A stretch of DNA of 64,000 nucleotides, from assembly GCF_032062105.1 (NCBI RefSeq), contig NW_026930195.1, positions 1 to 64,000 of the forward strand, read 5' to 3'. Positions 15,427-54,322 of this stretch are shown piece by piece. Both the position numbers and the translations under genes were made by a program. This DNA is from Saccostrea cucullata (taxonomy: Eukaryota). Positions within the stretch are counted from its first letter, which is position 1, and every line of letters begins with the position of its first letter. Under the pieces are notes generated by a model. That model did not search any database and had not been told where the DNA came from. It worked only from the letters and a program-made list of their open reading frames with translations.

Positions 15427-15727
15427 GATTGATTGATTGTGTATATTGTTAAACATCTCTCTCTTGAGAATTTTTCACTCACATGGAGACGCCACCACTT
15501 GCCGGTGGAGAGCTGTAAATTTTGTCATATACTTGGCACTGAGGGTCATTGAGCAGAGAGGGATCTTTTTTCGTGCCAGCACCTACTGCGACACGGGACC
15601 TTGGTTTATACGGTCTTCCGAAGGACCGGTCTCCACGTCCCACAGTGGGATTCGATCCCGGGATGTAAGGATTGACTCCTTTGCGACTCTTGAGCAGACG
15701 CTTTAGCCACTGCGCCACGCGGGCGCC
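15427..15727 (-). mobile_element. tRNA-derived SINE
   Basis: Minus-strand head GCGTGGCGCAGTGGCTAAAGCG (A box) and GGATCGAATCCC (B box); about 300 bp; (CAAT)n tail. Confidence 0.8.
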
Positions 15728-17030: not shown

Positions 17031-17345
17031 GGTCAGACGAGACGTTCCTCAAAATCTGTTTTGTATATCTTCGTAATGTATGAAAAATATTCAAAATTTT
17101 CATAAAATTCTGATTTCTAAAGCAGTTTCTAGACGTTTTTAAAATATCCAAACACTTAAACATTTGAAATTAGAAAATTATTTTCTTCCCCGAAGGATTA
17201 TATAAGAAACACTACCCCTGGTATCTTGCAGAAATGCCTGGTAAGGTACCTCAATTTTTTGTGAGTAAACATGTTTAAGTAGCAACACTTCAATGACAAA
17301 CTCTTAGAAAAATTTATCTATTATTAAGGAACGTCTCGTCTGTCC
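17031..17345. mobile_element. MITE with TTAA TSD (Kolobok-like)
   Basis: TTAA-GGTCAGACGAGACGTTCCT...AGGAACGTCTCGTCTGTCC-TTAA. Confidence 0.85.
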
Positions 17346-18944
17346 TTAATCAAATAACCAGTTAATTATATTATTTACAATTATTTATTGATTGTACAAT
17401 ATGGCACAAGGGAGTTAACTCCCAACTGTTTCACTAGTTTGAACACCTAACCGTCTAAGCAAGCTACTCTAAGTATACATACAGTGTTACGTAGAGATTG
17501 TGTCTGTCACTGTCTGACCTGACGTATGTTTACATTGTCTCTCATCAACGTGTTTTACATGTAATATATATATTTTTATTGCGAAATGTACCGGGGTCGG
17601 GGGAGAGTCAGGGCAGAGGCCTCTTCAGGTGTAATTTTCAAAGCAGAGGAATCTCGGGTTAAATGCATGAAAGCCACAAAATGGAAAGAAATCAAAGTAC
17701 TCAGAAGTACAGAGAGCCGGGCTTATTTACAGAGTAGAATGGATTTCTTACATGAATCATGTTTATATTCTGATGAAAAAATTATTTTAAAACTATCAAT
17801 ATAAATGATAAGACACTGACAGTGAGTTTTTCAATCCTAATACCACAGTCCGATTTTGTCAGAATCAGAATTAATCTGGTACCGCAGCTGAATGTAAACA
17901 AACAGGCCAGTCTGGTTCCCTCTCCTGCTTTACATCGTATGTGTAGAGAACTACGGTAACACTGATTATCAAAAAATCCTTACGCTAATGAACTATGTTC
18001 TTTGACTTATGAAGTTTTCAAAGTCATTACTACTAATGTTTGTTTTATATAGATAAAATTTCGTTTTATTTTTGTTGCTTTATTTAGCGTTTGTATTATC
18101 TCAAAAGCGGTCGAGAGTAAGAAATATATTTTTGCACGTAACTTTAAAATGGCGACTATGGGGTCAACATCCTGCCTTGAACAGGATCACATAAGCCGGC
18201 AATTGCTCTTTGAGCAATAAGCCCGGCTAAAAAGCACAGGGACTTGCTCCCAGCGTGTAATACCAGGTAATTATTTATATAAAAAAAATCATTTAGAGAG
18301 TAATCCTAGGGAAGTAGTTGGGTAGCAAAAATGCTTCAAAATGCAGAAAAAAATCAATATTCACCTTTAAAATTCTTTTATGCATATTATTTGCCCACCG
18401 AATTTCTTTTTAAAATGTTAAATTTAATAAAATATTGACCTTCATTTTTCTATGCTTAATTTGTAAAGTACCATATTTTGATAGTTCCCAGTACTTAGCA
18501 TGACCATTAGCAAGTGTGAAATTAAAATTGAATCGTAAACATTGTTGTTTGAATCTCTAGCATTGCTTTAAAAAATTAAAAACAAATTTAATTATCTCCT
18601 GTATCCCGTTTCCATGACAACCGAGGTTATAATTCAAAAATACTTCTACATTTCACAATCAATCACACATTTGTTTAAAATTATGACAGAAAAAAATCAA
18701 ATCTGTAACTATGCGTTGCCAACCAATTTTGATAATTACGGAGAATTGGTCTTAAAATGCTTATGTACAGAGACTTTAGAGAATAACTTTAGCTCCTTGT
18801 AATGTATAATTTTATTAATGTTATAAGTTCAGTAATATTGCTATGCATCAATTAAGAACAAACATTACTATTGTTAGAGTTCAACACTATTTTTTAATAT
18901 TTACCAAGTCATCATTTCTAGACGAAAATAATCAAATCTGTGAA

Positions 18945-19655
18945 TGAGTGCATGTCAAAAGTGGATTTATTTTCTTTGTTGCTAAGGGGAATTTTCTGTT
19001 GCTATGGCAATAAGTACTTGCAAAATATTCCTGGATTCATAAAGAAGTCTCAGAAATATGTTTTTACTTTAAAAATTGATTTTTGTATCCACCGATAAGA
19101 TTTAATTCCATAAATAACTCGCATATTTGACAATTTGTCTCTTTCTCTTAATCAAAACATCCATTTTTGTTGCTAGGCAACCGATTGTAAATATTAAAAA
19201 ACACACGTTTTTGAATTTAAATTCCAAAAGGGAAATTCCTCTGCTTTTATGTAAAATATACCATACTCTTGTATTGTGCGGGAAGTTTGAGATATATGGC
19301 CTTGAAAATTGCCCAAATTTACAAAAATGCTGAATCAGCAAAAAATGCAAAACATGCATATCTTCCATTGCCCGTAAAAGAAATATCTTAGAATAAAAAT
19401 AGTATGTATTGCATGGTTTTATCACTTGAAATGTTTATATTTATGATAACATTATTTAAGAACCCCTCTGGTAATATTCACATTAAATTTCAAGAAATTG
19501 AGAATATATTTATATAGGGTTTGAATAATTAATTTATTTGGTTCATAAGTTCTCACAACCCGGAGCAAATAATTTTCATTTTACATACGTGGTTCAGCAG
19601 AATACCTATGTGTGTACATCAGATAGATTTGTTGAAGAATCTATAAATGATTATC
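18945..19655. repeat. Right arm of the inverted repeat plus a direct copy of about 10110-10260
   Basis: 18945-19495 is the reverse complement of 10480-11040; 19500-19655 repeats TTTATATAGGGTTTGAATAATT...TCTATAAATGATTAT. Confidence 0.8.
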
Positions 19656-19788
19656 TAATTACCAGGAGAAAAGTATTAGGTTATATATATTTTCCAGTTA
19701 ACTTACATAAGTTACAAGCAAATACTTTGAGCTTGTTCCTTGTTGAATATAATTTTATCAAAGAGAAAGGGGAATAATGTAAAATAAC

Positions 19789-20017: not shown

Positions 20018-20806
20018 ATGGAGAGGAAGAAGCCACGCTCGTCATCATGGTCACGTATTTTATCATGTTTAGTGACAATGATCATGTCTGTAGTAAATGC
20101 ACAATGCGACAATTGTCGCATCGTAGGGAATGTAGCTAATTGCTTAGAGGCTAGGCGAAATTGTGTCTGGATACATACAGATCGTGTGACTGAAGTTCAT
20201 TAGCAGATGCGAGGTCGCGGTCTTATTTTCCCCGCCATTGCTACATGTACCATTGCCCAATATAAGAACAGCATACCACAGATGTGCAATCAGTAAGTAT
20301 GATTGAATATTGTATTGAACAGTGAATGTGTCAATCAGCATTATTGCATTTTGAGATTTCCCATCATTGCATCAAGTGTTTGACCTCGATCTCCTAGCTC
20401 TTGATTTTCATTGGTAGAACCGCGTTAACCTTCACCTTTAGGAAAGGGGGATATTTTCAAAAAGGTTTTTTTTTAACAAGCAAGTGTAGAAATAAATAAA
20501 TGATAAAAAAAATCAACATATTTTTATTTTATAAATTATGAAGACTATTCTGGTATGAGAGAGGATAAATCTAATTATGTCTAGTTGAAAAACAAATAGG
20601 GCATCTTCAAAATGATGATGTGTAAAGTACACAGCAGAATTTTTTTTGCTTAGCTCAGCTCTGACCTGGAATGCCTGGTCTCTTATCAACCCAGAATCAA
20701 CTAATGATAATAAGATCAAAGAAAGGGGAGAAGAATCAATGCCTAAAAATATAGAAACAAGACTTTGTTTTATTAGACAGTTATCTGTTGAACCTTTGTG
20801 TACATA

Positions 20807-20854
<48 letters not shown>

Positions 20855-22341
20855 AAAATAAAAAATATACTAGAAATCATAAAAATATTAGATATATTTA
20901 TGTTATAAAGAAAATAGTAAAAGATCACTATGATTAAATATAAAATATACATAAAGAAATTAATAATTAAGTGGTTTTACATGACCAATATCAGAAATCA
21001 TTATTTGAAAAAAAAAAAAAGAATAAAAAATGAAATCAAGTTGGATGACATATTTACTTTCAATTTTTTAATCTGAAATAGATAAAGAAACAACTACCAA
21101 ATTGAGAACTACCATGGGATTGGGAACAACAACTGAGGAACTCATCACTACCAAAAGTCGGACCATGAGAACAGCATCGACAACTAAGGCGAGACTTGTA
21201 ACACTAACTACCAAAAGTCCGACCATGAGAACAGCATCGACAACTAAGGCGAGACTTGTAACACTAACTACCAAAAGTCCGACCATGAGAACAGCATCGA
21301 CAACTAAGGCGAGACCTGTTACACTAACTACCAAAAGTCCGACCATGAAAACAGAATCGACAACTCAGGCGAGACTTGTAACACTACCTACCAAAAGTCC
21401 AACCATGAGAATAGCATCGACAACTAAGGCGAGACTTGTAACATTAACTACCAAAAGTCCGACCATGAAAACAGCATCGACAACTAAGGCGAGACTTGTA
21501 ACACTTACTACCAAAAGTCCGACCATGAGAACAGCATCGACAACTAAGGCGAGACTTGTAACACTAACTACCAAAAGTCCGACCATGAGAACAGCGTCGA
21601 CAACTAAGGCGAGACTTGTAACACTAACTACCAAAAGTCCGACCATGAGAACAGCATCGACAACTAAGGCGAGACTTGTAACACTAACTACCAAAAGTCC
21701 GACCATGAGAACTGCATGGACAACTGAGGCGAGACTTGTAACACTAACTACCAAAAGTCCGACCATGAGTACAGCTAATAGAGTTAGCGCTGCCTTTGTT
21801 ACTACGCCTGTGTCTAAGGAGGTGACCACATTTGCGTTGAAAGGTATTTCGCATTTTATTATTTATACTATGTGTTTAAACTTTTTCATACAAATAGAAA
21901 GAAGATATGTTTAGGGGAAAAATTTACCTGGAAATGTTTTTGATTCGTAGAATTTATATGAATATATGTAAAATTAAAATGTATATTCAATGTTGAAACA
22001 ATGTAATTAATTTGATGTTTTCAGATATCATGATGTTAACGCTGGAGAGTGTTACTCCTTTTTTGTTGATCATCATTTTAATCATATGGTATGTATGGAA
22101 ATGCGTGTTCAGCAACAAATTAACTGCAACAGCAACTCCCACAACATCTACCTCTTCCACGGAAGCCTCTACCAGTGCAACTACTGCATCTCAAACGGAA
22201 CTGCCAGCTTCTCCCTGTTCTTCATCACTTTCTTATGAAGTTGAAGACCGAGGTGTACAGGTTACACCAACACGCCCTCTTGTAGAAGAAAGAAAACAAC
22301 CTGAGAGGAAGGTTAAGAAGAAGCTTCCATTTAAAGTTTAA
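20018..22341 (+). CDS. Spliced mucin-like type I membrane protein (possibly disrupted; possibly Polinton cargo)
   Basis: Signal-peptide-like N-terminus plus Cys-rich segment from 20018. Thr-rich repeat exon about 21082-21843 is spliced in phase 1 (AAG/GT...TTTTCAG/AT) to exon 22025-22341, which has a TM helix (FLLIIILIIWYVW) and a basic tail. In-frame TAG at 20201 and the first splice phase is unresolved. Confidence 0.6.
20816..20851 (+). repeat. (GA)n microsatellite
   Basis: About 18 GA units. Confidence 0.95.
21148..21772 (+). repeat. Coding 60-bp tandem repeat (TTKSPTMRTASTTKARLVTL, about 10.5 copies)
   Basis: CTACCAAAAGTC recurs exactly every 60 nt, 11 times. Confidence 0.95.
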
Positions 22342-23743
22342 CTGTGGATTGTGTCTCAAATTGCATTAAAAAAAATCTTATACATGTAGGTTGCGGATAT
22401 ATTTGTTTTAACAATATAAAGATAATTTTAAGAGTAAATGAAAGTCTAAGTATCCCTTGTGGATGATATTTGTTTTCTAAGACAATGATGGTATTTTTAA
22501 AAATCATTTTATTTAGATAAGATTTTTTTTTAGCTCAGCATTTTGTGTAAGGGTTTTTTTTTTTGTTTGTATGTGTACATGTACACATCTCCATATTTTT
22601 ATGCAATTTGTTTCAAGAGTAAGTGGAAGTCTTAAGTATCCTGGTAAATGATACTTGTTTTCTATTACAATGGTGGTATTTAAATTTTTTGGTTTTGTTT
22701 ACTAGAGAAGATTTTTTGTTTAGTTTAACATGGTGTGTAGAGGTTTGTTTTTACATACACACATGCACACATTTATTGGCAATTTGGTATAGTGTTATGT
22801 ACAAGTAGCAGTAGTTTTGATTTTTAGTAGTTATTATAACTTTTATTGTTCATTTTTCTTTTGAACAATGCTTTGATTTGTTGTTTTAGGTAATCTTTTT
22901 ACTCATTCAAATCAGTATTATTTTAAATTTATTAATTTCTTGTGGACAAGATTAGAAAAATAAATTCTGAGACTGACTGAAAAGATAAGCTAGGTAAATA
23001 AAGTAAAAACGTAAGATAAAAAAAGAAAAGAAATATCTTCCTATAAACATTCCAATCTGTAGTGTAATATTTAGTGTATTTAATGCTAGTCCCTTATTTT
23101 CTATTCCATCCTCTTTGGTTGTGATTTTTTGTTAAAGAAATAATTTGAAAAATATGCAATTGATATTTTAAAAGATATACATGTTTTTTTGTTTGTTTTT
23201 TTTTTTTCGAGTATAAAAAAAAAAAGAAGTGCCAATAATTTTTGAGATTGATTTTTTTTTTTGTAATTTTCCAAAGTAATTGTATGAACAGTTGTTGTTT
23301 TATACATGAGGTTTTTCATGTAAAATAAAAAGAAAAAAAAAACATAAAAATGCGACATGTTTGTTTAATTGTTCATTCCATTTTTTTTTAAATGGTGCTA
23401 ATCAAACTTTTATATTGTGATATTTTAAAAAAAACACACAAGTGATTGTTTCTGTGTATGATGTTTGTTTTTATCTGTGATTTTTCTTTTTATTTTATTA
23501 TTCTTTTTGTCAGTATTACAAATAAGCAGAGAAACTGCATGTTCCATTCTTTTTTTTTTTAAATAAAGATTTTATATTCCGACAATTGTTATGTTGTTTT
23601 TATCAGGATATTGAGGATTAAAATGGTTTGCAATATGTTATACAACCTTTCTGTTGACTTCAGAGATGAAAAAATTAAATAGCACTTCCTCTTTCATAAA
23701 GCAAGTTTTTAATATTTGTATATTTTTTCCAGAATGATCTACA

Positions 23744-23947
23744 ATGAATACATCCAGGACAAAAGTTCAGTTTAGTGAGATAGTAGTGGAGTATGATATA
23801 TCTCCTGATGAGGATAGGAAAAGTCCCTGGATTCAGATGGCCATTGATCGTGCTCATTTTCAGAGACGTATTAGTTTGTTAAAAGTGAAACTTGAACCTT
23901 TAATGCAGCAAAAGTTAAAACACCTAAAGGACAATGTAAATAAATAA
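23744..23947 (+). CDS. Minimal PPP1R15/GADD34-like (ICP34.5/DP71L-like) PP1 regulatory subunit, 67 aa
   Basis: RVxF motif KVQF, then R.SPW..MA.DR..F.RRI, matching the GADD34 C-terminal pattern KVRF...RQGPWEQLARDRSRFARRI. An in-frame upstream TGA fixes the start. Confidence 0.85.
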   Translation: MNTSRTKVQFSEIVVEYDISPDEDRKSPWIQMAIDRAHFQRRISLLKVKLEPLMQQKLKHLKDNVNK

Positions 23948-23975
23948 TCCAAATATATAAATTTAAGCTTAGAAA

Positions 23976-26900
23976 ATGGAAGGTGAAGGTTCACTTTTAA
24001 AGGAAATCTTAAATTGCTTTGAAAATGAAGAACTTTTGCAATTTTTTGCAAGCTTTCATGGCATTACAGGGGATCCAGATGTTGAACACCGTTTGGAAGA
24101 GCTACGTAGTAATGGAATCCCTCCTAGTGATTTAATAAAGTCATGTATGCATAAAGATGTAGAGGAAAATGGTATTTCATTGTGTAAAAAATTTAAATCA
24201 TGTGAGAGTGAAAGTTGCCACAATTCACTTCAAGTAGGAAGAGGTGAAAACAACTTTCCTTCCACTGATCATGTTAAACCATATTATATATGGAAAAAAG
24301 ACCAGAAAACTTTTAAAAAAAATTTGGCCAAAGACACAACATACAAAATAAAGTTTAATGACAAATGGCGTGGAGAAAAGTTACTAGACATTTACAGTAA
24401 ACTCCACGATATGTTTGATGATGTTTTACAGCAGGCTAGAGGTCACGATGCAGATTTAGGTCGTGTAGTCCTAAGTCACCCAGATTTAATAAACCCTATT
24501 GTAATACCCCTCCAAAGTTGGGAACATTTGAATGCAGACACTGTAATGAATGAGGTTACAAAAGTACTCAACTCAAATGAAGATATAAAAGTAGATGATA
24601 GCTTAATGGTTACAGTTGGATCTATTGATATGCCAAAAGGTGGGGCAAAATTACCAATAACAACATTACTCGGATCAAACAACTCGTTGGAGAGAAAGCA
24701 TTCTACTTTTCATGTTGAAAATGACAACAACAGTTGTCTTGCAATTGCAATTGGGATATGTTTTTTAAAACTATGTGAAAAACTTGACTCTATTAACTGG
24801 AAATCTTTTAAAGAACAGAATACTGGATTATCTAACCTTGAATTAATTATTAAACATCGAAAGGTTTCTCTGAAATTTTACGAGAACATGTTGTTAAAAA
24901 AACGTAAATCAGCTCAGAAAAAGATGGCAACGTTCCTTTGTAAGAAAGCAGGTGTACCCACAAATAGATATTTAGGTTTAAACGACATTCCTATGTTCGA
25001 AAAAATTTTGGATGTAAATATTTTGGTAGTTTCCTCTACTGTAGGTAACAAATTTGTGAGAGTGGTTGAAAATAATGAAAAATCAAATTTATATATATAT
25101 CATGTGGAAAATGGTAAAGAAAAACATTGGCATGGAATCGCAAATATACAAGGGTTTTTCAAAGCTGCATATTTCTGTACGAGGTGTTTAAAACCATATA
25201 AAAGTAGACAAAATCACGTATGCGAAACTACCTGCAATGTGTGTTTGCGGGATAGTTGCTTAGACAGAGGGGGGGCAATGAGTTGTCGTTCGTGTGGTCG
25301 AGTGTGTCGATCGATGGAATGTTTTAGAATTCATAAAAAGAAGAAAACGATCAGAGGTAAAGAGTACCCGAGTCAATGCGATTCTATTTATCAATGCAGA
25401 ACATGTAAAAAAACAATAAAAAATTTGGAAAGAATGCCTGAGAAGCATGTATGTGGTGAGTGGAAATGCACTACATGCTCTCAATACCAAACACATGAAC
25501 ACTTCTGCTTCCAAAGAGGAATGACTGTGGATTTGAAAAAAAGAAATAAAAAATTTATCTTTTATGATTTCGAAACTCGACAAGATGAAACCATACAATG
25601 TGAAAGGGGATTTCGACCATCACCAACAAGATGTAGGAAATGTGTTGGTCATGAATATCAATGTAGTGATTGTCGACTCTGTAAGAATTGCCGCGAACCC
25701 CCCTGCGGTCTCTCACAACATAAAGTAAATTTTGCAGTTTTACAAAAAACTTGTTATAAATGTGAGAATGTTCCACTAACACCCGAATCAACATGCGCTA
25801 ACTGTGGAACACGTTGTAAAAATTGTTCGAAGAGTGTGAAAAATTCGTTTGTAAACCCACCATGTGATAACAAATGCGGAAAACGAGAAATTGTGTTTGA
25901 GGGGGATGATACCGCAGAACAGTTTTGTTCTTATATCACACAAGAGCACAATGCCGGTTCAATTTTAATTGCCCATAATGCAAAAAGTTTTGATTTATAT
26001 CCTGTTTTGGAAGTTCTGATTGATCGTCACTCAATAAGACCTGATAAAATTATTTACAATGGTTCGAAAATTATGTATATGCACGTGGGAAGAAAACTTA
26101 ATTTAACATTTCTAGACTCATTGAATTTTCTGCCAATGAAATTGGCCAAAATACCTGAGACATTTGGATTAAATGAATTGTGCAAGGGGTATTTTCCTCA
26201 TTTGTTTAACACTCGTGAAAATCAAAATTATATTGGTTCTTATCCTGATCCCCTTTATTTCGGTGTTGAATCGATGCAAGCATCAGAGAGAAAAAGATTC
26301 ATGGAATGGTATGAAACCAAAAAAGAACATGAAATATTCAATTTTAAAAAGGAGATGTTGAAGTATTGTAGATCGGATGTTGACATTTTACGTCGTGGTT
26401 GTTTGGAATTTAGACGAATCATGATTAAGGTTACACAGAAAAAAACTGTGGACAGAAAAGACGACGGTACATTGAAAATATCAACAACTCTTGGTGTTGA
26501 TCCATTTGACCATGTTACAATTGCTAGTGTTTGTATGGCTATCTATAAAACTCTTTTTCTGGAGGAGGAAATCGAAATAGAAATTAAAATGTCTGACTCA
26601 ACCAATCCAATATCCAAATGGTATAAAGTTTTCACTGATGGGAATCAATCCAAATTCATAGAAATTGGGGATAGTAAATTTTCCTTGGATGTAATTAGTA
26701 AAGACCCTAACTTTCAAGTTGGTCAAACACGATTTCTTAAAAGCCCAATAGCAGCTGTTCCTTCTACTGGATATGTTGCTAGAGATAATTACAGTAAGAT
26801 TTCCATACAATGGCTAGAATGGGTTATGGAAAAAAGTCGTTTAAACGGCATACCCCTTCATATACGCCATGCACTTAATGGAGGAGAAGTTCACATACCA

Positions 26901-28666
26901 AGTACAAACTACAGATGTGATGGTTTTTCGGACTATACAAAAATACAAACAAAGAAAGGGACGATATACGAATTTTATGGTAAAGTATTTTACCTTATTT
27001 TGTTACATAATTGATAACATTAAATAATAATGAAATTATAAGTTTTCACTCATTTTTTTTTGTAGGTTGTGTATTTCATGGCTGTCCTAGCTGCTATCCA
27101 GATGATAGAAGCACCCTGAAACATTCATCGACAGGGCAATCAATGGAAGAATTATACACCATTACTAAGAAACGAGAAAAGGAATTAAGGGCATTAGGGT
27201 ACATTATAGTTTCAATTTGGGAGCATGACTTTTTGAAACAATTGAAAACGAACAAGGTTTTGAAAGAATACGTTGCAAATCTAGATATTCAAGATAGACT
27301 TAACCCTCGAGAAAGTTTCTTTGGAGGGCGCACAAACGCAATTAAACTTCATTACAAAGCAAAAGATGATGAAAAAATTCATTACTATGACTTTACCAGT
27401 CTGTATCCTTGGACTAACAAGTATAGTAAATATCCCATTGGACACCCCGAAATTTTAACAGACGACTTCAAAGACTTATCCCAGTATTTTGGATTAGCAA
27501 AAGTTAAAGTATTACCACCAAAAGGATTATATCATCCAGTCCTACCCTACAATTCAAATGGCAAGCTGAAGTTTCCTCTGTGTAAAAAGTGTGCAGATGA
27601 AGAAAACCAGGATACATGTACATGTTCTATTGACGAAAGGTGTATTATCGGAACGTGGTGTACCCCAGAATTAGAACTAGCAATTTCAAAGGGATATGAA
27701 GTTTTAAAAATTTATGAAATATACCATTTTAAGGATGCTACACAGTATGACAGATTTTCTGGTCAAGGCGGGCTCTTCTCTCCGTATGTTAACATGTTTC
27801 TTAAAATAAAGCAAGAGTCGTCTGGTTTTCCATCGGGATGCATTTCATTAGAAGATAAACTTGAATATATTCGTCAGTACGAAGAAAATGAGGGCATTCA
27901 ATTAGAATATCATAACGTAAAGAAAAATCCAGGTTTACGCTGTTTAGCAAAGTTATGCCTTAACAGTTTCTGGGGAAAATTTGGACAAAGATTGTTGATG
28001 CGACAGTCAGAATTTATTCACGAATCGGAAGCAGAAAAGTTTTTTAAACTTTTGTCTGACGTTCGAAAAAATGTGAATAATTTTCATATAATCTCAAATG
28101 ACACAGTGCAACTAGAATGGATAGAAGATCCCTTGTTTCCAGGAGTTGATAACAAGACCAACATTTTCTTGGCGTCGTTTACGACCATGTGGGCACGATT
28201 GAAATTATACAGTGTTCTGGACATACTTGGAGAAGATGTCTTATACTTTGACACAGATAGTATAATCTTTAAATCCAAAATTTCTGACGATCTTCGTCGA
28301 CTGCCCATTGGAAACTACCTAGGTGAACTTACGAATGAAATAAAACCCCAAGATGGATTTATCACAGAGTTTGTATCGGGTGGACCAAAAAACTACGCTT
28401 ACAGGACATTGTCAGGAAGAGAAGAATGTAAAGTTCGAGGATTTACCTTGAATTGGAAAAACTCGAAACTTATAAACTTTGATGCTATTAAAAGTATGAT
28501 TTGTACCGGACAAAACGACTCTGTGACAATTACGAACCCATGTAAGATATCCAGAGACAGTCGAAAAAGAAAACTTTTCAACCGAATCGAAGAGAAGAAA
28601 TACCAAATGGTTTATACCAAGCGTAAAATCTTAAGTAATCTGGACACACTTCCATATGGATATTAA
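23976..28666 (+). CDS. polB: Protein-primed family B DNA polymerase, join(23976..26979,27066..28666), 1534 aa
   Basis: Exonuclease motifs FYDFET, AHNAKSFD, YCRSDV; polymerase motifs YDFTSLYP, KLCLNSFWGKFG, YFDTDS. An 86-nt GT-AG intron restores YEFYG/CVFHGC. Confidence 0.95.
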
Positions 28667-28845
28667 CTATATACAAGTGATTAAGATAATCAATGTTTTA
28701 TTCAATAATTGATTAAAATAATGTTTCATTTCTTCACGCTTTTAAAATAAAAATATTGAACACACAATATCGTTTTCATTTATAAAAAATAAAAAAAAAA
28801 GAAAGAAGAGTTTTGTCGCATTCATTCATTGTAGAATTTAAACTG

Positions 28846-29151
28846 TCAGTATTTTATCCAATTAATACTTCTTATTCTGTCAATAGTACTAGTCCTCCTT
28901 CTTCTGGTGATTTCACGGATACCCGGTGGACATCCTTTGATTTGTTTTGGCGTAAATGTCTGTAATTTCTGCGTGCAAGTATCTTCCTCTTGATCATGTA
29001 TGTCAACATTTTCGTTTAAATCCATTTTATTCTCAGATGTATGTTTTAGAGAATCACATTCACTCATCTCTTTTTCCTGGCTATTATCTGTATCCAATTT
29101 GATAATTTTTTGGTACTTTTGTTTGGGGATAAGAATTAATTCCCTAGCCAT
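28846..29151 (-). CDS. Polinton hypothetical protein, 101 aa
   Basis: ATG ORF overlapping the upstream gene by 8 nt; acidic middle, Arg-rich end. Confidence 0.65.
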   Translation of the reverse strand: MARELILIPKQKYQKIIKLDTDNSQEKEMSECDSLKHTSENKMDLNENVDIHDQEEDTCTQKLQTFTPKQIKGCPPGIREITRRRRTSTIDRIRSINWIKY

Positions 29152-29473
29152 TTCGATCTAATCTATCAAAATATTTCACGACTGGATTTAAAATCCAGAC
29201 TAAAAGCTTAGGATTTTTTAACAAAATTGCACGTTTTCGTTTAGACGTTACTTCTTTTGAGCCAAGAAGACGAATGAATGAACTAAAAGGTTTCAAAATT
29301 TTTATGTATCTTCCGTGTAATGGAAAAGATCCTGTATATATGTTCATTGCTATTTCGCTAATAGCATGTAATTGCTGCTCTGTAAGTGTTTTGATAATTG
29401 CCCGCTGTTGATTGAGATCAGCACGAGTGAAAAATCTAAGAAATAATAATTCCCTCCGTATTTGTCGAGTCAT
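29144..29473 (-). CDS. Small basic helical Polinton protein, 109 aa
   Basis: AIIKTLTEQQLHAISEIAMNIYTG resembles the small conserved ORFs next to Polinton ATPases. Confidence 0.75.
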   Translation of the reverse strand: MTRQIRRELLFLRFFTRADLNQQRAIIKTLTEQQLHAISEIAMNIYTGSFPLHGRYIKILKPFSSFIRLLGSKEVTSKRKRAILLKNPKLLVWILNPVVKYFDRLDRNG

Positions 29474-29511
29474 TGTTCCGAAATACTAGATTTTCAAATT
29501 GTAAATCCTTT

Positions 29512-30195
29512 TTAAATAGGTTGATAAATTGTGACATCTTCATTAGGAAGTATATGTGATCTTAGCTGATAATTTTTATCCTGATTTGGTTCTAAGCAGA
29601 TATGTAAATATCCATATTTTTCACGCGTAGCAGATTCATATGCCGATTTAAAATAGATTGAATTTCCCGGAAAAAGTTGAGAACCTAATGTAATGACCTG
29701 ACGACAGTCTCTATAGTTCTTAAATAAAATTACATTGAGGCAGTTTAATGAAATCGTTCGAGCATATTTTCCTGGAGGATAAAGATTTTGAGTCAGAAAT
29801 ATTACACTGATATTACGATGATGGCTAGTAACAGTAAAAAGCTGTACACATTCCTTCGATTCTGCAATTTTTATCATAAGGTCATCCAAAACTAATATTG
29901 TATGATTCGATTCTTCTGAAAATAGCTCGATGTCTTCATTAGAAGGAAGGCCTTTGTGAAACGTTATTTCAGGTATAGTTTTTTTCATCTCATCAAAGAT
30001 TTCTTGATATTCAGAATATGCATAAACTATCTTTTGTGCTGGCCGTATAAACATTCCATATGCACATTCTAATAATTGCTTTGTAAAGTACGTTTTTCCA
30101 CTCTGAGTACTACCACTTATTAAGATGGTAGTTGGTACTGAAAATGGAATCAAAGCCTCTTTTTGCCACCAATTAACAGTAGATACCTGCTCCAT
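29512..30195 (-). CDS. FtsK/A32-like genome packaging ATPase
   Basis: Walker A GSTQSGKT, Walker B ILVLDD, SHHRNISVIFLTQN. Confidence 0.95.
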   Translation of the reverse strand: MEQVSTVNWWQKEALIPFSVPTTILISGSTQSGKTYFTKQLLECAYGMFIRPAQKIVYAYSEYQEIFDEMKKTIPEITFHKGLPSNEDIELFSEESNHTILVLDDLMIKIAESKECVQLFTVTSHHRNISVIFLTQNLYPPGKYARTISLNCLNVILFKNYRDCRQVITLGSQLFPGNSIYFKSAYESATREKYGYLHICLEPNQDKNYQLRSHILPNEDVTIYQPI

Positions 30196-30302
30196 GTTAC
30201 CACTAAAGCAGTAAATAATAAACTACAAATTATTTGTTCCGTCCATCTATTTTATTTAAAAAAAAGAAATTAATATTTCTACTAAACAGACTATATTATA
30301 AT

Positions 30303-30764
30303 TTACCTAAGATATCTGAGCATAAACTTATATACATACATGTCATTCATATGTAAATCATTCGTAAAACTAATGTACACATTTAAAAAAGACTTCTTGA
30401 AATACAATCTCATTATCAAAAAATATAACACATACAATCCACAAAAATCTGATCCTCTGGACTGAATCCTTTGTTTGTTAAAGGTTACTTTGCTACTATT
30501 CCTTTGCAAAAAACTTGCAATATCTCGATTTTGAGACGGAGATTGTCCAAGACTATCAAAATACTCAGCATCAGAAGCATTGCGAATAATGATGGCAACC
30601 CAGTGTTTACCCGGTAGCGGTAAAGGTTCAGTGTTAACAATAAAAGCACTTGGATATTGAGAAACCTTATTTGGTAAGGTATTACATGCAAACACACCCT
30701 GTACAAAATTATCAAAAAGATTATTATTATTTTTAATAATATTTTGCAACTGTAACGTATTCAT
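30303..30764 (-). CDS. Adenain-like (C5) cysteine maturation protease
   Basis: Catalytic motifs GKHWVA, YFDSLG and IQ....DFCGLY are intact. Confidence 0.95.
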   Translation of the reverse strand: MNTLQLQNIIKNNNNLFDNFVQGVFACNTLPNKVSQYPSAFIVNTEPLPLPGKHWVAIIIRNASDAEYFDSLGQSPSQNRDIASFLQRNSSKVTFNKQRIQSRGSDFCGLYVLYFLIMRLYFKKSFLNVYISFTNDLHMNDMYVYKFMLRYLR

Positions 30765-32077
30765 GGTTGAATGTAGTTGATATCACGAGCTTTGTTAATT
30801 TCAAGCAAGGCTGAGTAAGTTGAAAATACCACGGCGTTTAAGGCTTCTGTAGTAGCAGTCTTAAATTTCAGCTCTACTCTAGTATTTCCACGACGTATCA
30901 AGTTTATATACTCTTCTCCAAATCCACAAGGATTGATAGTAAACACGTAAAATGCATAACCTTTCCCAAAGTCTTCTCTGTCTATGTATAAGCCTGTATC
31001 TTTGTTCCACTTTCCACAAGGTTCAAATAATCGCGCATAGGCTGAAGCATAGTTTCCAGCTTCGAAGTCCAATTTTAATGGTCTACCGGGTATACTTTCA
31101 CCGTTAATATAAACACCCACATCTGTTATTGCATACGGTGCAAAATTGAATGGATTGGCTGAGTAGTCTCCATTAACAGCACTTTGAGACAATAGACCAA
31201 TTATTATACGATCAGGTACAGCCTGTGGGAATATATTGTCCCAGTAAAATTCCGTAGATCCTTTCGGTATGGTATTCATCTTCACTTCGTTTCTTGGTAA
31301 AATATATTTGGCTGGGGTAGATTCTATCTGTTTACTGTGATTGATTAATACTCCAGGATCAACTCTCACTTTTGCAACTTTATACACAACATCTAAAAGT
31401 TCTAGTTTGTAAGCAGGGGATGCCTCCGCAGACATGATAATAAATGGTATGCATGATCGGAATAATTTCATGTAAATATCTACACCATTGATAAGGTACT
31501 TATCAAGGTCAAATATATCTTCCATTAAGCTTCCTTCCATTTCAAAAACATTGCTTTTCTGTGTATAAGAATATCTTTCGACTAAGCCTGCATTTCCGCC
31601 ATTATATGCATTTGGATCTGCTAAATTCCCTTCGTCTTTTGTAAACAACTGCGATTGTTTCTGAGATAACAATTCATCTCGACCGCTAAATAATACGGTT
31701 TTCATATAAGCTTTCCAAGGGTAGTTGGTAGTATTCAGAGATATTAATTTGTTATTCAAATAAATATCCATCTGGGAGAAGATGCTTTGTAAAGGCAAAT
31801 TTATTATTCCGGTTTTTTCAGCCGCAGCCAAAGCTTGACCATCAGCTTTTATAATCCTAGCTTTAACATACAGTTTACTTTTCCTGAGATCAATATATTC
31901 AGCTCCTGCTCCAGACACAACAATTTCAATTGGAGTATCTGAGGCACTTATATTAGAAATCGGTCTTGCTTCCGTATAATAAACCTTTTCAACTGCAACC
32001 TGATTGGATGGGGAGGCAAAAAGGGAAAGTTCCATAGGCTGAGCAATCTCTTGGTTTTCACTGCTAAGGAATGACAT
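30761..32077 (-). CDS. Double jelly-roll major capsid protein (PY/hexon-like)
   Basis: 438 aa, beta-rich; ELSLF..P..Q, EYIDL..S.LY, P..IIIGL, NPFNF and FGKGYAFY.F motifs typical of Polinton MCP. Confidence 0.9.
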   Translation of the reverse strand: MSFLSSENQEIAQPMELSLFASPSNQVAVEKVYYTEARPISNISASDTPIEIVVSGAGAEYIDLRKSKLYVKARIIKADGQALAAAEKTGIINLPLQSIFSQMDIYLNNKLISLNTTNYPWKAYMKTVLFSGRDELLSQKQSQLFTKDEGNLADPNAYNGGNAGLVERYSYTQKSNVFEMEGSLMEDIFDLDKYLINGVDIYMKLFRSCIPFIIMSAEASPAYKLELLDVVYKVAKVRVDPGVLINHSKQIESTPAKYILPRNEVKMNTIPKGSTEFYWDNIFPQAVPDRIIIGLLSQSAVNGDYSANPFNFAPYAITDVGVYINGESIPGRPLKLDFEAGNYASAYARLFEPCGKWNKDTGLYIDREDFGKGYAFYVFTINPCGFGEEYINLIRRGNTRVELKFKTATTEALNAVVFSTYSALLEINKARDINYIQP

Positions 32078-32089
32078 TTTTTTTCTAAA

Positions 32090-32626
32090 TTATTTTTTGA
32101 AGATGGTCCTGAAACTGTCAATTTTAAATTCCCTCTTTTTTGAAGTTGTATTTTTTCTTTTTAATTTTCCAACATTAGTTATTTTCTTTTTCTTCGTTAT
32201 TTCCTTCTTTTTCGGTGATTTTTTCCGATTCAATCTTAAAGTCTTGATTTGCTTAATGTAAGTTTGCTGTGATTTTTTCAAAGGTACGCTCTTCTTGGTC
32301 TTCTTTATTGAAGTGAAATTGATATCACCGAGGTGCCTTTTTATACCCTTTTCCAATTCAACATGTGGATTTCCCTCTTGAACATCCTTTTCATGTTCTG
32401 AGATAGCTCGTTCTTCGACGGAAGCTAAAGGAGTTACCAGCTTAGTTGTTTCAGGGTTTTCAAACTGTGCATGTGGCTTTACAGGAATTGAATACGACTT
32501 CTTAATATTACTACCTCTCCCTGTCTGTTTTGGTTTGTACATATAAGGATTGAATTTCTTTTCAGCCATATTTTTATAGAAAGTCTCCCAAAGTTTAGGA
32601 TCGCTTACGTATGTTTGACTATTCAT
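32090..32626 (-). CDS. Lys-rich putative core/DNA-condensing protein
   Basis: Very basic C-terminal half; N-terminal W..FY..M...QTGRG motif; lies between the two capsid genes. Confidence 0.75.
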   Translation of the reverse strand: MNSQTYVSDPKLWETFYKNMAEKKFNPYMYKPKQTGRGSNIKKSYSIPVKPHAQFENPETTKLVTPLASVEERAISEHEKDVQEGNPHVELEKGIKRHLGDINFTSIKKTKKSVPLKKSQQTYIKQIKTLRLNRKKSPKKKEITKKKKITNVGKLKRKNTTSKKREFKIDSFRTIFKK

Positions 32627-33051
32627 TATAAAACAAATGGAATTTTTTTCAGGTGAAGCGTTATGGTCACTGGAGCGTCAAAAAAAGAAATGAGATTTCC
32701 AGCTCTGTCAGTGAGTTTTATACTAATTTGCTGAATTTGGGTATTTTTTATAGGTACATAATATGGTGAAGTATATATAATATTATCTTCTTTTCTATCT
32801 CCCAGGAAAATTCTTCTTAATAATTGCATTTCATTACCTCCTATAAATGTTTCCTCACAAATGTCACAACAAACATATATTTCTGATTTCTTTTGAGATG
32901 GAATCCAGCTTTTTGTAGAAAATTCAGTTAAACCTATCACCCAATAGCCATCAAATTGTATCTGCTTATTAAATTGAGCCCTAAAGCACTGAGGCCTATT
33001 ATCAAAATATTCTGTACTGTCTGTTGATGCTAACACCATCCGTAGACTCAT
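32626..33051 (-). CDS. Single jelly-roll minor capsid protein (PX/penton-like)
   Basis: S..YF.N....F, GYWVIGLTE, IYVCCDI, LLRRI, YVP, I.I.LTD..G and TLHLK motifs. Confidence 0.85.
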   Translation of the reverse strand: MSLRMVLASTDSTEYFDNRPQCFRAQFNKQIQFDGYWVIGLTEFSTKSWIPSQKKSEIYVCCDICEETFIGGNEMQLLRRIFLGDRKEDNIIYTSPYYVPIKNTQIQQISIKLTDRAGNLISFFDAPVTITLHLKKIPFVL

Positions 33052-33093
33052 GTTGAATGGAAGAAATCCATTTGAACACTTTAATTTATTTAT

Positions 33094-34218
33094 TTATTTA
33101 TAATTTTCAATTGATCTCTCAGGTAACCAAGAGTTAAACTTCTTTGGCCACCCTTCCCATTTAACCAAGACCTCAGTCTGCCCGTTTCTTTTCCTTTTTT
33201 GAAGCACTTTTTCTATGCGATAGAGAATATCGTCAGGTTTTTGAATTTTTTGCAGCTCATACTGATAAAATGTTCCCTGGATTGGGTCATCCATAAGATC
33301 ATTCAGCTTATAAATAGGTATTTTCCCTCGCAAATAACGTTTCACCACTTTGAAATATTCCTCTGACCATTTTTGCTGATAGTCTCTTTGAAATGCACGT
33401 TTCAGTTGTGTCATTCTTACATTATCACCTATTTTGAATTTAAATATTGTTTGTTTTTTCTTTCCTTTGCGCTTTGGATCATTATTTTGTTTTCCTTGTG
33501 CTAAATACACAGATAATCTAGTTTCGTCTGCATTTTCGGGTTTTACGGAGGCTGGACTTAGTCCACCGAGAGATCTGTGGGGTCGTTCATTGTAACTTTC
33601 TACAAGTTTTTGTAAAATTTCTACGTATCGATAGGTTTGGTTTTTAAAAAAATACCGATACATCATATTTTTTATTGTTCGTATTACTCTCTCCGCATAA
33701 TTAGCTTTTGTTTCATTTTGAGTATATATTATATTCACATTTTCTTTCACTAGATATGACTTGACCCATCGATTCTTAAACTCACTTCCCTTGTCACTTC
33801 TTAGAACTTGGGGTTTTCGACCATATTTAAATATTTTCTTCAACCCATCTATGATATTTTGATGATGTTTTGATTTCAATGGAATAATGAATAAAAATCT
33901 ACTAAATATATCAATTAAAACTAGTAAGAATCTAAATCCATCGTTTTCTGACGCAATGTTGCCAACATCGGCCAAATCACCATCCCACATAGAATCGATA
34001 GTGTCGACAATAACTTTTGAACGATGAAATTTCCTTCTGATTGGTTTAAACAAACTGTATGCGTCTTCATTATTGAGAAACTGTTTGATTTTTCCTCTAC
34101 CGAGTTTATATTTTCCTTCCTTCTTAACAATTTGATACAGTTTGTCCGGCCCTGAAAAAGCAGCAGGACTACCAGGATGAAAATATATTTTCTTTAGGTA
34201 GTCTTTATAGGTTGACAT
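33094..34218 (-). CDS. Retroviral-like (rve) integrase with C-terminal chromodomain
   Basis: DDE triad GDLAD / RSDKGSEF / AERVIRT; chromodomain YRIEKVL...VLVKWEGWPKKFNSW. Confidence 0.95.
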   Translation of the reverse strand: MSTYKDYLKKIYFHPGSPAAFSGPDKLYQIVKKEGKYKLGRGKIKQFLNNEDAYSLFKPIRRKFHRSKVIVDTIDSMWDGDLADVGNIASENDGFRFLLVLIDIFSRFLFIIPLKSKHHQNIIDGLKKIFKYGRKPQVLRSDKGSEFKNRWVKSYLVKENVNIIYTQNETKANYAERVIRTIKNMMYRYFFKNQTYRYVEILQKLVESYNERPHRSLGGLSPASVKPENADETRLSVYLAQGKQNNDPKRKGKKKQTIFKFKIGDNVRMTQLKRAFQRDYQQKWSEEYFKVVKRYLRGKIPIYKLNDLMDDPIQGTFYQYELQKIQKPDDILYRIEKVLQKRKRNGQTEVLVKWEGWPKKFNSWLPERSIENYK

Positions 34219-34546
34219 ATCTTTTCAAGTGTGTAATATGTTTGATATATTGCTCATTTTATATCATTTTTTTAGCAACAAAAAAAAAAAAAAAACAAAA
34301 CAAAACAAAATAAACCTTACATTCATTTTATTTTTAAAAGATCGCATATTCTCAAACATGTAATGAATAAAATATATTTTAAAAGATTTAATTTTTTTTA
34401 AATATATTTTTAATTATGCATACATAAATATGATTTAATATTGTATAGATTAAAATCAAATACAAAATACAAAGTGTGCAAAAGATATACATATAAAATA
34501 TTATCTCTCTATATATAAATTGTCATTCCGATAGAAATGTCACTTT

Positions 34547-35020
34547 TTAATTTGATGAACGTGTTCTGTTCATAGAAAATCCGATTCTTGATAAATTCTG
34601 CCATTGATGGATATTTACAAGAGGAACGCAAATGTCATTTTCAGTTGGATAATCATCCTGACATTTCTTTAATTCTATTCCCATACCATCTTTTGAAACA
34701 CAGGTTCTCAAAAAAACATTAACAGGGAATTGTGACTGTTCCTTAGGGTGACAGGTTTTGTTCTGGCGCAACTTTTCAAACTTCCCTATTGCACTATTTG
34801 ACATGGTTAGAGATCTTCTGTTTGACTCTTTAGACAAGTTAACAACTACAGAAGTCAAAAACAGGACGATAAGAATCGTCATACCAAATAATTTAGTAGC
34901 TGCAATGGAACTTTTTAACCTGTCTTTAGATGTTGCTGAGAGGGTTTTATTATAATTCTTTATAATGTCATCTACAAATGGAGCAAATTCCTTTTCCGAA
35001 ATAGCAACAACCTCAGTCAT
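34547..35020 (-). CDS. Single-pass (type II-like) membrane protein with a Cys-containing, PC4-like C-terminal domain
   Basis: Hydrophobic LFGMTILIVLFLTSVVV; four Cys and four NxS/T sequons after the TM; NVFL...IEL...PT...N..QW..L pattern. Confidence 0.7.
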   Translation of the reverse strand: MTEVVAISEKEFAPFVDDIIKNYNKTLSATSKDRLKSSIAATKLFGMTILIVLFLTSVVVNLSKESNRRSLTMSNSAIGKFEKLRQNKTCHPKEQSQFPVNVFLRTCVSKDGMGIELKKCQDDYPTENDICVPLVNIHQWQNLSRIGFSMNRTRSSN

Positions 35021-35107
35021 CTTTGTATTCTTTTTAAATAACCCATTTTTTGAATTCTTAACACTTATATATGAAAATGTTTAAATTGTTTGCATCTGAA
35101 TAACTCT

Positions 35108-36118
35108 TCAAAAGTCAAATCCAATGCAAATGTCCTCTTTTTCAGAGTCGTTGTCATCAATATTGAGGGATGATATCTCCTGTTCAGAATCGTCTGCGTT
35201 ACATTCCATTGAAAGAGATTTCGATTCTTTTGGAAAGGGGGTGCATTCTGGGCATGAAAGCATTCCCTCTTGGTTCTGATGGGATTCACTAAACATACAA
35301 AGTTCTACATTGTTTAGTTCAGGGACATAATCATGAAGCTCTTGTAAAGCAGCTTTTAATCGAGCAAACATTGTCTTGTTAAGACATACTCCTTTCTTGG
35401 TAGGTATTGGACTTTCAACGCTCTCTGGTTTCCAATAATGTCTTACATCAACTGTAGCAAACTTTGGTGTTAAGGAAACAAATACACCTCCTCCAATATG
35501 CCATTGTATTTCCGCAGACTGTCTCCAGTAAGTTTGGAGATAGGTGTCAATCTCCTCAATTAATGATTCAAATTTCACCCAGCGCCCTAGGTTAAACGTG
35601 GCTCCTCTTTTTGATGGGAACATTCCTCCATTATTCTCTATGAAATGACGTAAATGGATAATAATATCACCTCTGTAAACTGTGGCCGTCAGGAAAACGT
35701 TATTTTTTTCATCCAAATTTATCTTACATCTTGTTTCTGTTTGCTCTTTTCTTTGATGCGGAGTGTTTGTTCCTTTTTTGACATCAATTATTAGTGATCG
35801 AGCTGAAGCTAACTTCTTTTCGTATTCTGTCAATGTGCTGTCGTCATAATCATTCAGTAGGAGTTTTGATAAATTAAGATGCCCCGATTTCATAAGTGCC
35901 TTGTGCAAACCTGTGAAAGCTTTGGGTCCTCTCCGTAAAATGATGCTTATCAATTTTCTATTTTGTTCGTTGTTAGTTCTCTGTGAGCTTATGGTTTCTC
36001 TCATGTCTTCTGTAATAATCCCGTCTTCATAGAGTCGCTGTGCCACCCAAGTTGCAGTCATATTTTTTACCAGAAGTGAGTAGTTTTTTTTAATGATTTC
36101 TTTGTGCTTGTCATCCAT
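35108..36118 (-). CDS. CARD-PC4-PC4 fusion with C-terminal C/H/CxxC motif
   Basis: Residues 1-87 fit a CARD (L...GIIT.DM.E.I....T..EQ.RKL..I..RRGPKAF..L..AL...G...L..LL). Two PC4-like units (IHLRHF...PSKRG..F....W and VDVRHYW...PTKKGVCL); CMFSESHQNQEG...CPEC. Confidence 0.85.
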   Translation of the reverse strand: MDDKHKEIIKKNYSLLVKNMTATWVAQRLYEDGIITEDMRETISSQRTNNEQNRKLISIILRRGPKAFTGLHKALMKSGHLNLSKLLLNDYDDSTLTEYEKKLASARSLIIDVKKGTNTPHQRKEQTETRCKINLDEKNNVFLTATVYRGDIIIHLRHFIENNGGMFPSKRGATFNLGRWVKFESLIEEIDTYLQTYWRQSAEIQWHIGGGVFVSLTPKFATVDVRHYWKPESVESPIPTKKGVCLNKTMFARLKAALQELHDYVPELNNVELCMFSESHQNQEGMLSCPECTPFPKESKSLSMECNADDSEQEISSLNIDDNDSEKEDICIGFDF

Positions 36119-36189
36119 TCTGACAGGTGTAGACTACTTTTTGCAACAAATGAAAATTCAGTTTCAATTTCTCCTTAAATAGTAGAATT

Positions 36190-36453
36190 TAGTAGGTCAG
36201 GTCATCTAAATAGGTCATGTATCCTGAGGAAAAAGGTCGACCTAATAATTCGCAATTGAGGTCATGACCTGATTCATTATTTGACCTGACCTACTTAAGT
36301 GACCTAAGCCTCCGTGTTTTGACCTACTTAGGTGCCTATGACCTCGGTGACTAGTGTTGACCTGACCTACTTTGGTGACCTTGACCTCAGTGACCTGACC
36401 TTGACCTCATTTTGGCTTTAGAAAAGTGAGTGTCAGGTATACCCTATGCTGCT
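36190..36453. promoter_or_regulatory. Polinton right terminal region with a TGACCT/AGGTCA array
   Basis: More than a dozen TGACCT/AGGTCA hexamers; terminus reads 5'-AGCAGCATAGGG on the minus strand. Confidence 0.7.
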
Positions 36454-37486
36454 CAAAAGACAGTCTTAACAGTATCCATAATCAAGTCAAAAGACTGCCT
36501 TAACAGCATCCATAATCAAGTCAAAAGACTGTCTTAACAGTATCCATAATCAAGTCAAAAGACTGGGGGAGATGTAATTTTCCAATTCTTTGCAATCTGA
36601 TTTAACTGTAATTTCAGTCTTGCCAACTGCCTCATTCTCTGTGATATATTGCGAGTCCTTCTTGGCCCCAACTGATTTATGAGGATTTTCCCAGACACGA
36701 GGATCAATTTGTCACTGACAACAGCATCATAGATCTCGTCTTGCCTCATTTTGGTTAGTATCGTGTCTTTGATTTCTGCTGGAATGTCGTCATTAGATGG
36801 CATGGGTTCCAAGCTTCCACCAAGAAGCAACCTAGCAATGATTCCCTCTTGATGACTGGCATCATTCCAAAGGCAACTTCTTGCATGTCGCCATGATTCT
36901 TTTTTTAAAGAAAAAGCCGAAGGAGTATACACATGGCAGATAGTTTTTGTCAAATGACTTCCTTTGCTTGACCTTTGACATACTATTAAGGAATTTAAAA
37001 CCTTTAAATTATACTTGAGATTTCCTACATTTTTAAACTTGTCCAGGTGTTTCTTCTATTCTTGTTTTGATATTTTTTACAATGTCTCTGCTACATGTTT
37101 TTCTTTTCCATGTTTTTTTTTATTCTTTGACGCAAAACTTTCAAACAGTGATAGCATGATAATGTTTTATTGTAGCGTCTTTTTCCAACTGGTTTAAGGA
37201 TCGTCTTCACTCGAACTAAAATAATATTTTATCTTTGATTATAGCATGGTTAAAGCTTTTTGTGAATGGAAAATACTGTTTTACATACAAAGAAACCACA
37301 GCATCTCCTTAATTAAAACCCACTGTGCATGGACAAAAGATGCACACCAGAGACAAATTTATCTTCCCTCGTAATTAATATACAAATAAATGAAATCTAT
37401 AGAAAAAATTCGATAATCTGTGTTTTATCTGGTGTTGTATTGTATATTTAACAAGACAGACTGCGATCGTCGTTAGTAATAATTAT
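36454..37486. repeat. Near-identical segmental duplicate of 42114-43146
   Basis: Identical ORF translations (36555/42215 and 37015/42675); the copies diverge after CGTTAGTAATAATTATA. Confidence 0.95.
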
Positions 37487-53990: not shown

Positions 53991-54322
53991 AAAACACTTT
54001 ATGTACTTAGGAGGAACATAATGTAACTGTGACACAATGAATGGACAGGGTGTTACTACATAGGGTACCACCTTTCAAAGCTTTAATATCTACAGTTACA
54101 TGTATTACAATTGTACTTTATTAGTATAACAACTTGTATACAGCGTTGTACCTAATTGAAATAGCATTGGGCTGTTAATAGCCAGGGAATTACATAGGTG
54201 GGTAAATTCTCAAGACCTTTGGTCTTTTTGACAACCCTGACTATATTTGATATTTGTTATCTCTTTGTTTAGCTGCCCCTTTTTTTAAATAAAATTTCCT
54301 ATGAATAAATTGCCCAATCTAC

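Follow-up and report, generated by a model that had tools for sequence, protein, structure and literature searches.

An oyster Polinton family with conserved accessory cargo: GADD34-like, CARD-PC4, membrane-anchored PC4 and mucin-type genes

Does a Polinton (Maverick) inserted in the genome of the oyster Saccostrea cucullata carry accessory genes that act on host defence, and could this particular copy still be activated? The stretch examined, hereafter the window, covers positions 1 to 64,000 of contig C12332 in an oyster genome of 1.17 Gb, and the original prediction had proposed that positions 20018-36453 hold a complete, activation-competent Polinton of a bivalve-like host, with a four-part anti-defence toolkit on both sides of its core genes. 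The host is an oyster, the closest named proteins being those of Saccostrea cucullata (best identity 99%), and the element is a genuine Polinton/Maverick, a known class of element whose cargo set has previously gone unremarked. The locus is probably a recent insertion of an oyster Polinton family that keeps a conserved cargo for a virus-like phase of replication, whereas the window copy itself seems too swollen to be packaged whole.

The accessory genes are a family-wide cargo under purifying selection and not accidents of one insertion. The survey on which this rests covered 14 other elements with core genes, seven of them close relatives (putative major capsid protein 75-83% identical) and seven distant ones (46-55%), several of the distant stretches being incomplete. 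Sister copies devoid of cargo would have spoken against the toolkit, and the relatives keep it. Moreover, pairwise dN was lower than dS in 20/20 cargo comparisons (6/6 GADD34, 5/5 CARD, 5/5 double-PC4, 3/3 membrane-PC4 and 1/1 mucin-tail pairs), with synonymous sites near saturation in most of them. The toolkit as a whole fares unevenly: the cargo is conserved and the GADD34 mimic has its motifs, but the double PC4 is a core gene and the defence roles proposed for the membrane proteins are unsupported.

The open reading frame (ORF) at 23744..23947 on the plus strand encodes a GADD34/CReP/DP71L-like protein of 67 amino acids (aa), a predicted regulator of protein phosphatase 1 (PP1), which reaches 41 bits against PF10488 (cut-off 26; E 1.8e-10). 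Its closest solved relatives are PPP1R15B (CReP; E 2e-8) and DP71L (E 7e-6), with which it aligns across the PP1 motif and the helix that follows. The RVxF-type PP1-binding motif, KVQF in the window protein, is present in 6/7 element ORFs tested, and the residues W, A, D, R, F, R and I of the eIF2-alpha motif match the pattern quoted in PMC5346070, a relaxed form of which is matched in 6/7 element ORFs. The predicted GADD34 mimic thus holds up, with its Pfam score above cut-off, its PP1-binding motif and most of its eIF2-alpha motif. This protein likely recruits PP1 to eIF2-alpha: it would bind host PP1 through KVQF and steer the phosphatase to phosphorylated eIF2-alpha, so that translation would stay on, by analogy with DP71L of African swine fever virus (ASFV). 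The PP1-binding motif followed by a W...A.DR..F..RI helix, within about 70 aa, is shared with ASFV DP71L, ICP34.5 of herpes simplex virus and the host proteins GADD34 and CReP (PPP1R15), from all of which the oyster protein differs in being encoded by a 20-kb integrating element, in departing twice from the eIF2-alpha pattern and in its variable gene position. The ORF occurs in all seven close elements, in one of the seven distant ones and in C22890. It is placed to the left of the DNA polymerase gene (polB) in C6359, C18125, C22890 and the window copy; the other elements have it at their right end. The oyster host has a GADD34 gene of its own, long and multi-exon, and the short element form is therefore a separate gene. 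A word-index protein search with the 67-aa protein gave no match, and a GADD34 profile search gave 1616 proteins at E <=0.001, among which 20 were looked up: 17 were unnamed, two were called 'hypothetical protein' and one was the long host gene.

The gene at 35108..36118 on the minus strand joins a CARD to two successive PC4 domains, which resemble PUR repeats, and to a Cys/His tail, as recognized by Pfam and by a fold model (pLDDT 71). The CARD scores 48 bits against PF00619 and its model superposes on the CARD of Apaf-1, its best fold match, at 0.9-1.1 A rmsd, while the model of the tandem PC4 part matches repeats I-II of PURA (TM 0.69 by target). The double PC4 adjoins the integrase gene in 14/14 other elements and bears a CARD in 7/7 close and 0/7 distant elements; a still more distant element, C5768 (39% capsid identity), also has the CARD and two PC4 domains. 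The gene had been predicted to be accessory, and its domains are those expected, but its PC4 part belongs to the core and seven elements lack the CARD. The double PC4 is read primarily as part of the core replication set, to which a CARD was added, and since the pair is a core gene, it is probably the single-strand DNA-binding protein of strand-displacement replication. The tandem domains would coat the displaced single strand in protein-primed replication, and the added CARD would likely act as a decoy or plug for CARD signalling of the Apaf-1/caspase type, which would help infected cells to survive. Unlike PC4/Sub1 and the PUR-repeat proteins, binders of the single-stranded DNA or RNA type with which the fold of PURA repeats I-II is shared, the oyster PC4 is fused to an Apaf-1-like CARD and has given rise by duplication to a paralogue with one domain, a membrane anchor and a conserved Cys pair. 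Homologues of the CARD-PC4 protein are named from three oyster genera, Saccostrea, Crassostrea and Ostrea. In a capsid tree of 12 rows, from which C18125, C12981 and C13789 were left out and which has a midpoint root only, the six CARD-bearing rows lie on one side of a 100/100 branch. A single recent gain of the CARD is not established, since C5768 also has the CARD and double PC4.

Nevertheless, the same observations could describe mere replication housekeeping, in which the CARD would be an oligomerisation handle for cooperative binding of single-stranded DNA and the GADD34 mimic would ease the endoplasmic reticulum or proteotoxic stress that overproduction of capsid or activity in the germ line brings about. 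The position of the double PC4 as a core gene next to the integrase in all 14 other elements fits this account, as do the absence of any CARD standing alone at the 18 loci inspected (several of them broken), the ability of CARDs to form filaments, with such entries among the fold matches, and the similar rates at which the CARD and PC4 parts evolve. However, the seven distant elements do without a CARD, the best fold match is the CARD of Apaf-1 at about 1 A rmsd, and known viral GADD34 mimics counter translation shut-off, according to the accessible part of PMC5346070. The CARD is more likely a decoy than a scaffold, and we give the housekeeping account roughly a one-in-five standing, well behind a conserved cargo that serves a virus-like phase.

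The two remaining cargo genes encode membrane proteins. The hydrophobic ORF predicted near the right end is present at 34547..35020 on the minus strand and is a membrane-anchored PC4-fold paralogue, with a predicted type II topology and two conserved Cys residues after the membrane segment. A profile built without the window protein recovers it at E 1.2e-11; the family profile matches solved PC4 at E 1e-5 and aligns with CARD-PC4 at an hhalign E of 1e-4. No member of the family is more diverged than the window protein, for which the structure model is weak (pLDDT 51). Forty database homologues were found, and both the hydrophobic segment and the pair of Cys residues are present in 29/29 of those checked; the gene is present in 4/7 close elements and in C15415. 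At the right end of some relatives (L141, L145; G000:C622, C11113), a further small Trp-rich ORF of about 90-100 aa stands beside the membrane-PC4 and GADD34 genes.

The left membrane gene is of mucin type, encodes a type I protein and has three exons at 20018..22341 on the plus strand, with exon phases (1/1-1/1) that agree in sister copies. Exon 1 (20018-20292) encodes a signal peptide and a small Cys-rich domain, the repeat exon (21082-21843) is Thr-rich with a 60-bp repeat, and exon 3 (22025-22341) encodes the transmembrane segment and tail; relatives share this layout. The mucin-like gene is therefore present, as predicted, and conserved in relatives, but it is not open in the window, where exon 1 has a frameshift near 20195 and a stop at 20201, while 4/4 sister copies hold the frame to the splice donor (C6105 with a stop of its own). 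Ser/Thr-rich or transmembrane exons of this type occur in the left arms of 6/6 close and 4/6 distant elements examined, and a first exon with signal peptide and Cys-rich domain is visible in C6359, C18125, C21451, C1504, C9894 and C22890. The sequences barely align across relatives and the layout persists. A location at the cell surface or in a lumen is likely for both this protein and the membrane-anchored PC4; that the mucin-type protein might be a glycan shield or an attachment factor is a guess.

The core genes (23976-34218) are all open, as predicted, and comprise the polymerase, ATPase, protease, two putative capsid genes, three small ORFs and the integrase. The protein-primed family B DNA polymerase (polB; 23976..28666, plus strand) consists of two exons, each with PF03175, separated by an in-phase GT-AG intron at 26980-27065, for a total of 1535 codons, and polB of the relatives is broken at the same place. 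All other core genes lie on the minus strand. Two small ORFs of 101 and 109 aa (28846..29473) are kept in relatives and match by position the Maverick genes pz and pm, labels that follow the gene order of PMC8097293 and imply no homology. The A32-like packaging ATPase (29512..30195) has Walker motifs and a Pox_A32 match at E 5e-4, below cut-off; the adenain-like maturation protease (30303..30764) is above cut-off for both Peptidase_C5 and C48. The ORF at 30761..32077 is a putative major capsid protein, an assignment drawn from its position, length, conservation and a sub-threshold match to the DJR-like family PF21738 (E 0.065); a profile search of solved structures found no relative of it. A basic 178-aa protein (pw position) and a 141-aa putative minor capsid protein (32090..33051) are recognized by position and conservation in relatives, and Pfam has no family for either. 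The integrase (33094..34218) is of retroviral type with a chromodomain, both rve (42 bits) and Chromo being above cut-off, and has its DDE residues. Every catalytic motif sought in the polymerase, integrase, ATPase and protease is present, the patterns being those that we take to mark these families. A Pfam scan of the element detected no PLA2X, gasdermin or IAP family.

An open core does not make the window copy whole, and its ends had to be traced across contigs. The right terminal inverted repeat (36265..36453; 189 bp) ends in (GCT)2 and is identical at 189/189 bp to the left repeat on contig C2006; its last bases, ...CCCTATGCTGCT at 36453, are directly followed by the target-site duplication CAAAAG (36454..36459, plus strand). 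The same six bases precede the left repeat on C2006 and C11242, where CAAAAG is followed by AGCAGCATAGGG and the host flank is shared with the window; the host sequence before these left ends is the one that precedes an empty site at 42114-42119 in the window. Of nine exact copies of the element end in the genome, two are these left ends, one terminal on C2006 and one on C11242. The left end that had been predicted, with its CAAAAG duplication, thus exists, and the terminal repeats and 6-bp duplication of a Polinton are present, though the paired ends sit on two contigs; four relatives (C6359, C21451, C1504 and C6239) have both ends and the duplication on a single contig. Within the 64 kb of the window there is no left terminal repeat and no second copy of the right one. 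A left repeat at the N run was considered and rejected, as the sister arms C10189 and C6105 span that position in 177 and 55 bp, respectively, without a repeat. In these sister copies, about 3.6 kb separate the left repeat from the downstream site that corresponds to window position 19925; the repeat lies outside the accessory genes, which are consequently inside the element, and the family length is about 20.1 kb. The element therefore begins far to the left of 20018 and is not complete between 20018 and 36453.

The left arm of the window copy is interrupted twice. A second Polinton-type element with an AGTAGT terminus occupies 1..9172, ending at 9172 and running off the contig start. This terminus has 26 exact copies genome-wide, and a copy of the family on C10596 (G000:C10596:13664-34534) measures 20.9 kb, has a 6-bp duplication and mirrored halves and contains no ORF >=130 aa in the 20 kb listed; the nested element is likely a gene-less palindromic satellite. 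It also holds TTAGGG-like arrays and 346-349-bp tandem arrays (2281-2500, 3272-7883). Next comes a Polinton left-arm segment (9173..10262), with 95.5% identity to the sister arm C10189 and 89% to C6105, which consists of a 250-bp high-copy repeat and exons of a minus-strand gene. A high-copy DNA transposon of about 9.3 kb with inverted ends of about 700 bp is then nested at 10255..19616 (boundaries approximate); 40/40 scored candidates, of 605, match it at >=94%. A simple deletion of the left end is ruled out, since 9172 is the exact end of another Polinton-type element. Because C2006 and the window share the flank and the CAAAAG duplication, we infer that C2006 leads into the window contig, which makes this copy at least 38 kb long where the family length is about 20.1 kb. 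Subject to doubt about the assembly, the window copy is neither free of insertions nor of the length usual for the family, and not all of its conserved genes are open; the activation competence claimed for it is unsupported because the nested insertions about double its length and one cargo gene, the mucin-type one, is frameshifted. Its open core genes could, nonetheless, serve sister copies and satellites in trans.

As regards the minus-strand gene that adjoins the left repeat, it is multi-exon, with one exon near 9506-9799 and a Gln-rich exon (L036:2500-5000), and in the window the nested elements break it up. Kin exons occur in C6359 and C18125, and no Pfam family scored above cut-off for it.

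The doubt about the assembly can be pressed further, to a copy that is whole and activatable, as originally predicted, in which the nested pieces and the frameshift are artefacts of collapsed near-identical copies. Five contigs (C2006, C11242, C10737, C14543 and C19792) end inside the element and only one core of the subfamily is assembled, a pattern typical of repeats that have been collapsed; Polinton sequence is mixed into the right end of the nested transposon (19492-19662), which looks hybrid, as in a hybrid consensus; indel errors could have arisen, as an open gene of the sister copy C10737 contains an indel; and the flank is tandemly duplicated with an empty site. On the other hand, the left arm, otherwise colinear, is joined at 9172 to a Polinton-type terminus with single-base precision, the region of the frameshift also bears several substitutions, and C10189 and C6105, the two further left arms extending to the mucin repeat, are cut by a fragment of a long interspersed nuclear element. 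A whole copy hidden by the assembly thus appears improbable, and a truly swollen copy of a recently inserted family is preferred.

The age of the insertions bears on the same reading. At three insertion sites with different flanks, the right ends share 97.9-99.7% identity; the element is also present, in long pieces with few differences, in two DNA runs from other studies, and the host flank of the window is covered by run X3 and hardly by run X1. The near-identity of ends at different flanks and the uneven flank coverage of the two runs point to a young, low-copy and polymorphic family, contig depth being no measure of copy number; no junction of the window insertion was among the DNA-run matches listed. 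Co-option of the element or its cargo by the oyster, for instance as a defence against large DNA viruses, an open idea raised for vertebrate Mavericks in the accessible part of PMC8097293, is very improbable, as the insertion looks polymorphic, the young copies occupy different sites, and the signal of selection comes from comparing mobile copies and not from a fixed locus.

Several findings weigh against a conserved cargo that serves a virus-like phase. The eIF2-alpha motif of the 67-aa protein departs from the pattern at two positions (Ser for Gly/Asn/Leu, and His for Arg before Phe). The GADD34-like gene is dispensable, since it is found in only one of the seven distant elements and is absent from the fully bounded C6239; even among close relatives its ORF is short in C9894, has no in-frame PP1 motif in C12981 and carries a degenerate one in C1504. 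No host partner of the CARD was found, all 18 CARD loci inspected (of 29 matches) being of Polinton type, and the left junction of the nested element that would match is absent from the 26 hits to its terminus. Poly(A) reads are scarce: in two poly(A) runs of one study, about half of each of which was read, 9 of 12.8 million and 39 of 11.3 million reads fell on the 14.7 kb considered; the bin containing the larger part of the GADD34 ORF received no read. Contigs labelled as RNA ('metatranscriptome') were rejected as a sign of expression; they are likely DNA, because they keep the polB intron and cover host flanks, and they cover the element evenly. Finally, scans of IMG/VR gave no related capsid or CARD-PC4 locus.

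The IMG/VR scan with the GADD34 profile gave one large-virus contig, and a phage collection gave no match. Metagenomes yielded 19 loci with a GADD34-like match, two of which (L185 and L187) have the gene order of the window clade. GADD34-like ORFs were also seen in Polinton-like contigs of other lineages (L181:744-7000, L196:273-2471 and L192:547-2156), lying between polB and the ATPase gene in L181 and beside a double-jelly-roll gene in L196, in elements unrelated to that of the window; the remaining loci are host-like or uninformative. This distribution suggests that the GADD34 mimic may have been captured repeatedly by Polinton-like lineages. More speculatively, and with odds that we put clearly below even, oyster Polintons might be actively circulating viruses with a compact counter-defence kit so far undescribed for the class, made of a DP71L-like PP1 hijacker, a CARD-armed single-strand DNA binder that would suppress cell-death signals where replication takes place, a mucin-type surface protein that evolves fast and a PC4 fold placed outside the cell or in the lumen, with GADD34 mimicry recurring in unrelated lineages.

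Flanking accessory regions and anti-apoptotic cargo are already known in Polintons, and no description was found of GADD34, CARD-PC4 or membrane-PC4 cargo. Accessory regions on both sides of vertebrate Mavericks are described in the accessible part of Barreat and Katzourakis 2021 (PMC8097293), and Bcl2, IAP, gasdermin-like and Rb-binding ('Oncoid') cargo in that of Starrett et al. 2021 on adintoviruses (PMC8502044). As far as the former text extends, vertebrate Mavericks share with the oyster element polB, integrase, ATPase, protease, two capsid genes (putative in the oyster), the small ORFs and the order of neighbours, as well as terminal repeats with a doubled trinucleotide, the 6-bp duplication, the two-sided accessory regions and a length of about 20 kb. 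By the same portion of that account, they differ in their end motif, (AGT)2 or (AG)3 against (AGC)2 in the oyster, and in lacking introns, which the oyster has in polB and accessory genes, while the oyster ATPase lies on the capsid strand, unlike theirs; GADD34-like, CARD-PC4, membrane-PC4 and mucin cargo go unmentioned in the available text and one supplement. Adintoviruses are likewise animal Polinton-type viruses with host-modulating accessory genes, for which the terms GADD34, CARD, PC4, mucin and phosphatase are absent from one supplement, and PC4 and phosphatase from the main text, of PMC8502044 as accessible. Literature searches, with figure maps and most subscription journals outside their reach, gave no account of Polinton GADD34, CARD-PC4 or membrane-PC4 cargo, and those pairing 'polinton' with 'PC4' gave PC4 only as a cluster label.

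As to whether animal Polintons replicate as viruses in their hosts, the GADD34 mimics and CARD fusions conserved under selection across oyster elements are indirect evidence of an infectious phase, since a gene that rescues translation is useful to a virus and of little use to a transposon. Each cargo gene is small and can be assayed alone, and the double-PC4 gene offers a candidate single-strand DNA-binding protein for Polintons. Moreover, oyster gene models of the CARD-PC4 type may be miscounted as host immune genes.

Some further features of the locus and genome may be recorded. The right flank (36454-37487) is duplicated at 42113-43147 with 99.7% identity, the second copy having the empty target site, and the junction at 37487 lies within the end of a repeat, which could reflect either a tandem duplication or an assembly artefact. 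The target of the insertion is a 34-bp tandem repeat (41835-42225) that interrupts a long minus-strand reading frame; one of its units holds AGCAGCAT, the first eight bases of the element end, and the flanks of other insertions are unrelated. A 156-bp tandem array lies at 52740-53995. Finally, the genome contains a second and much larger Polinton-like group, with dozens of capsid matches at 31-36% identity in open frames of about 480 aa.

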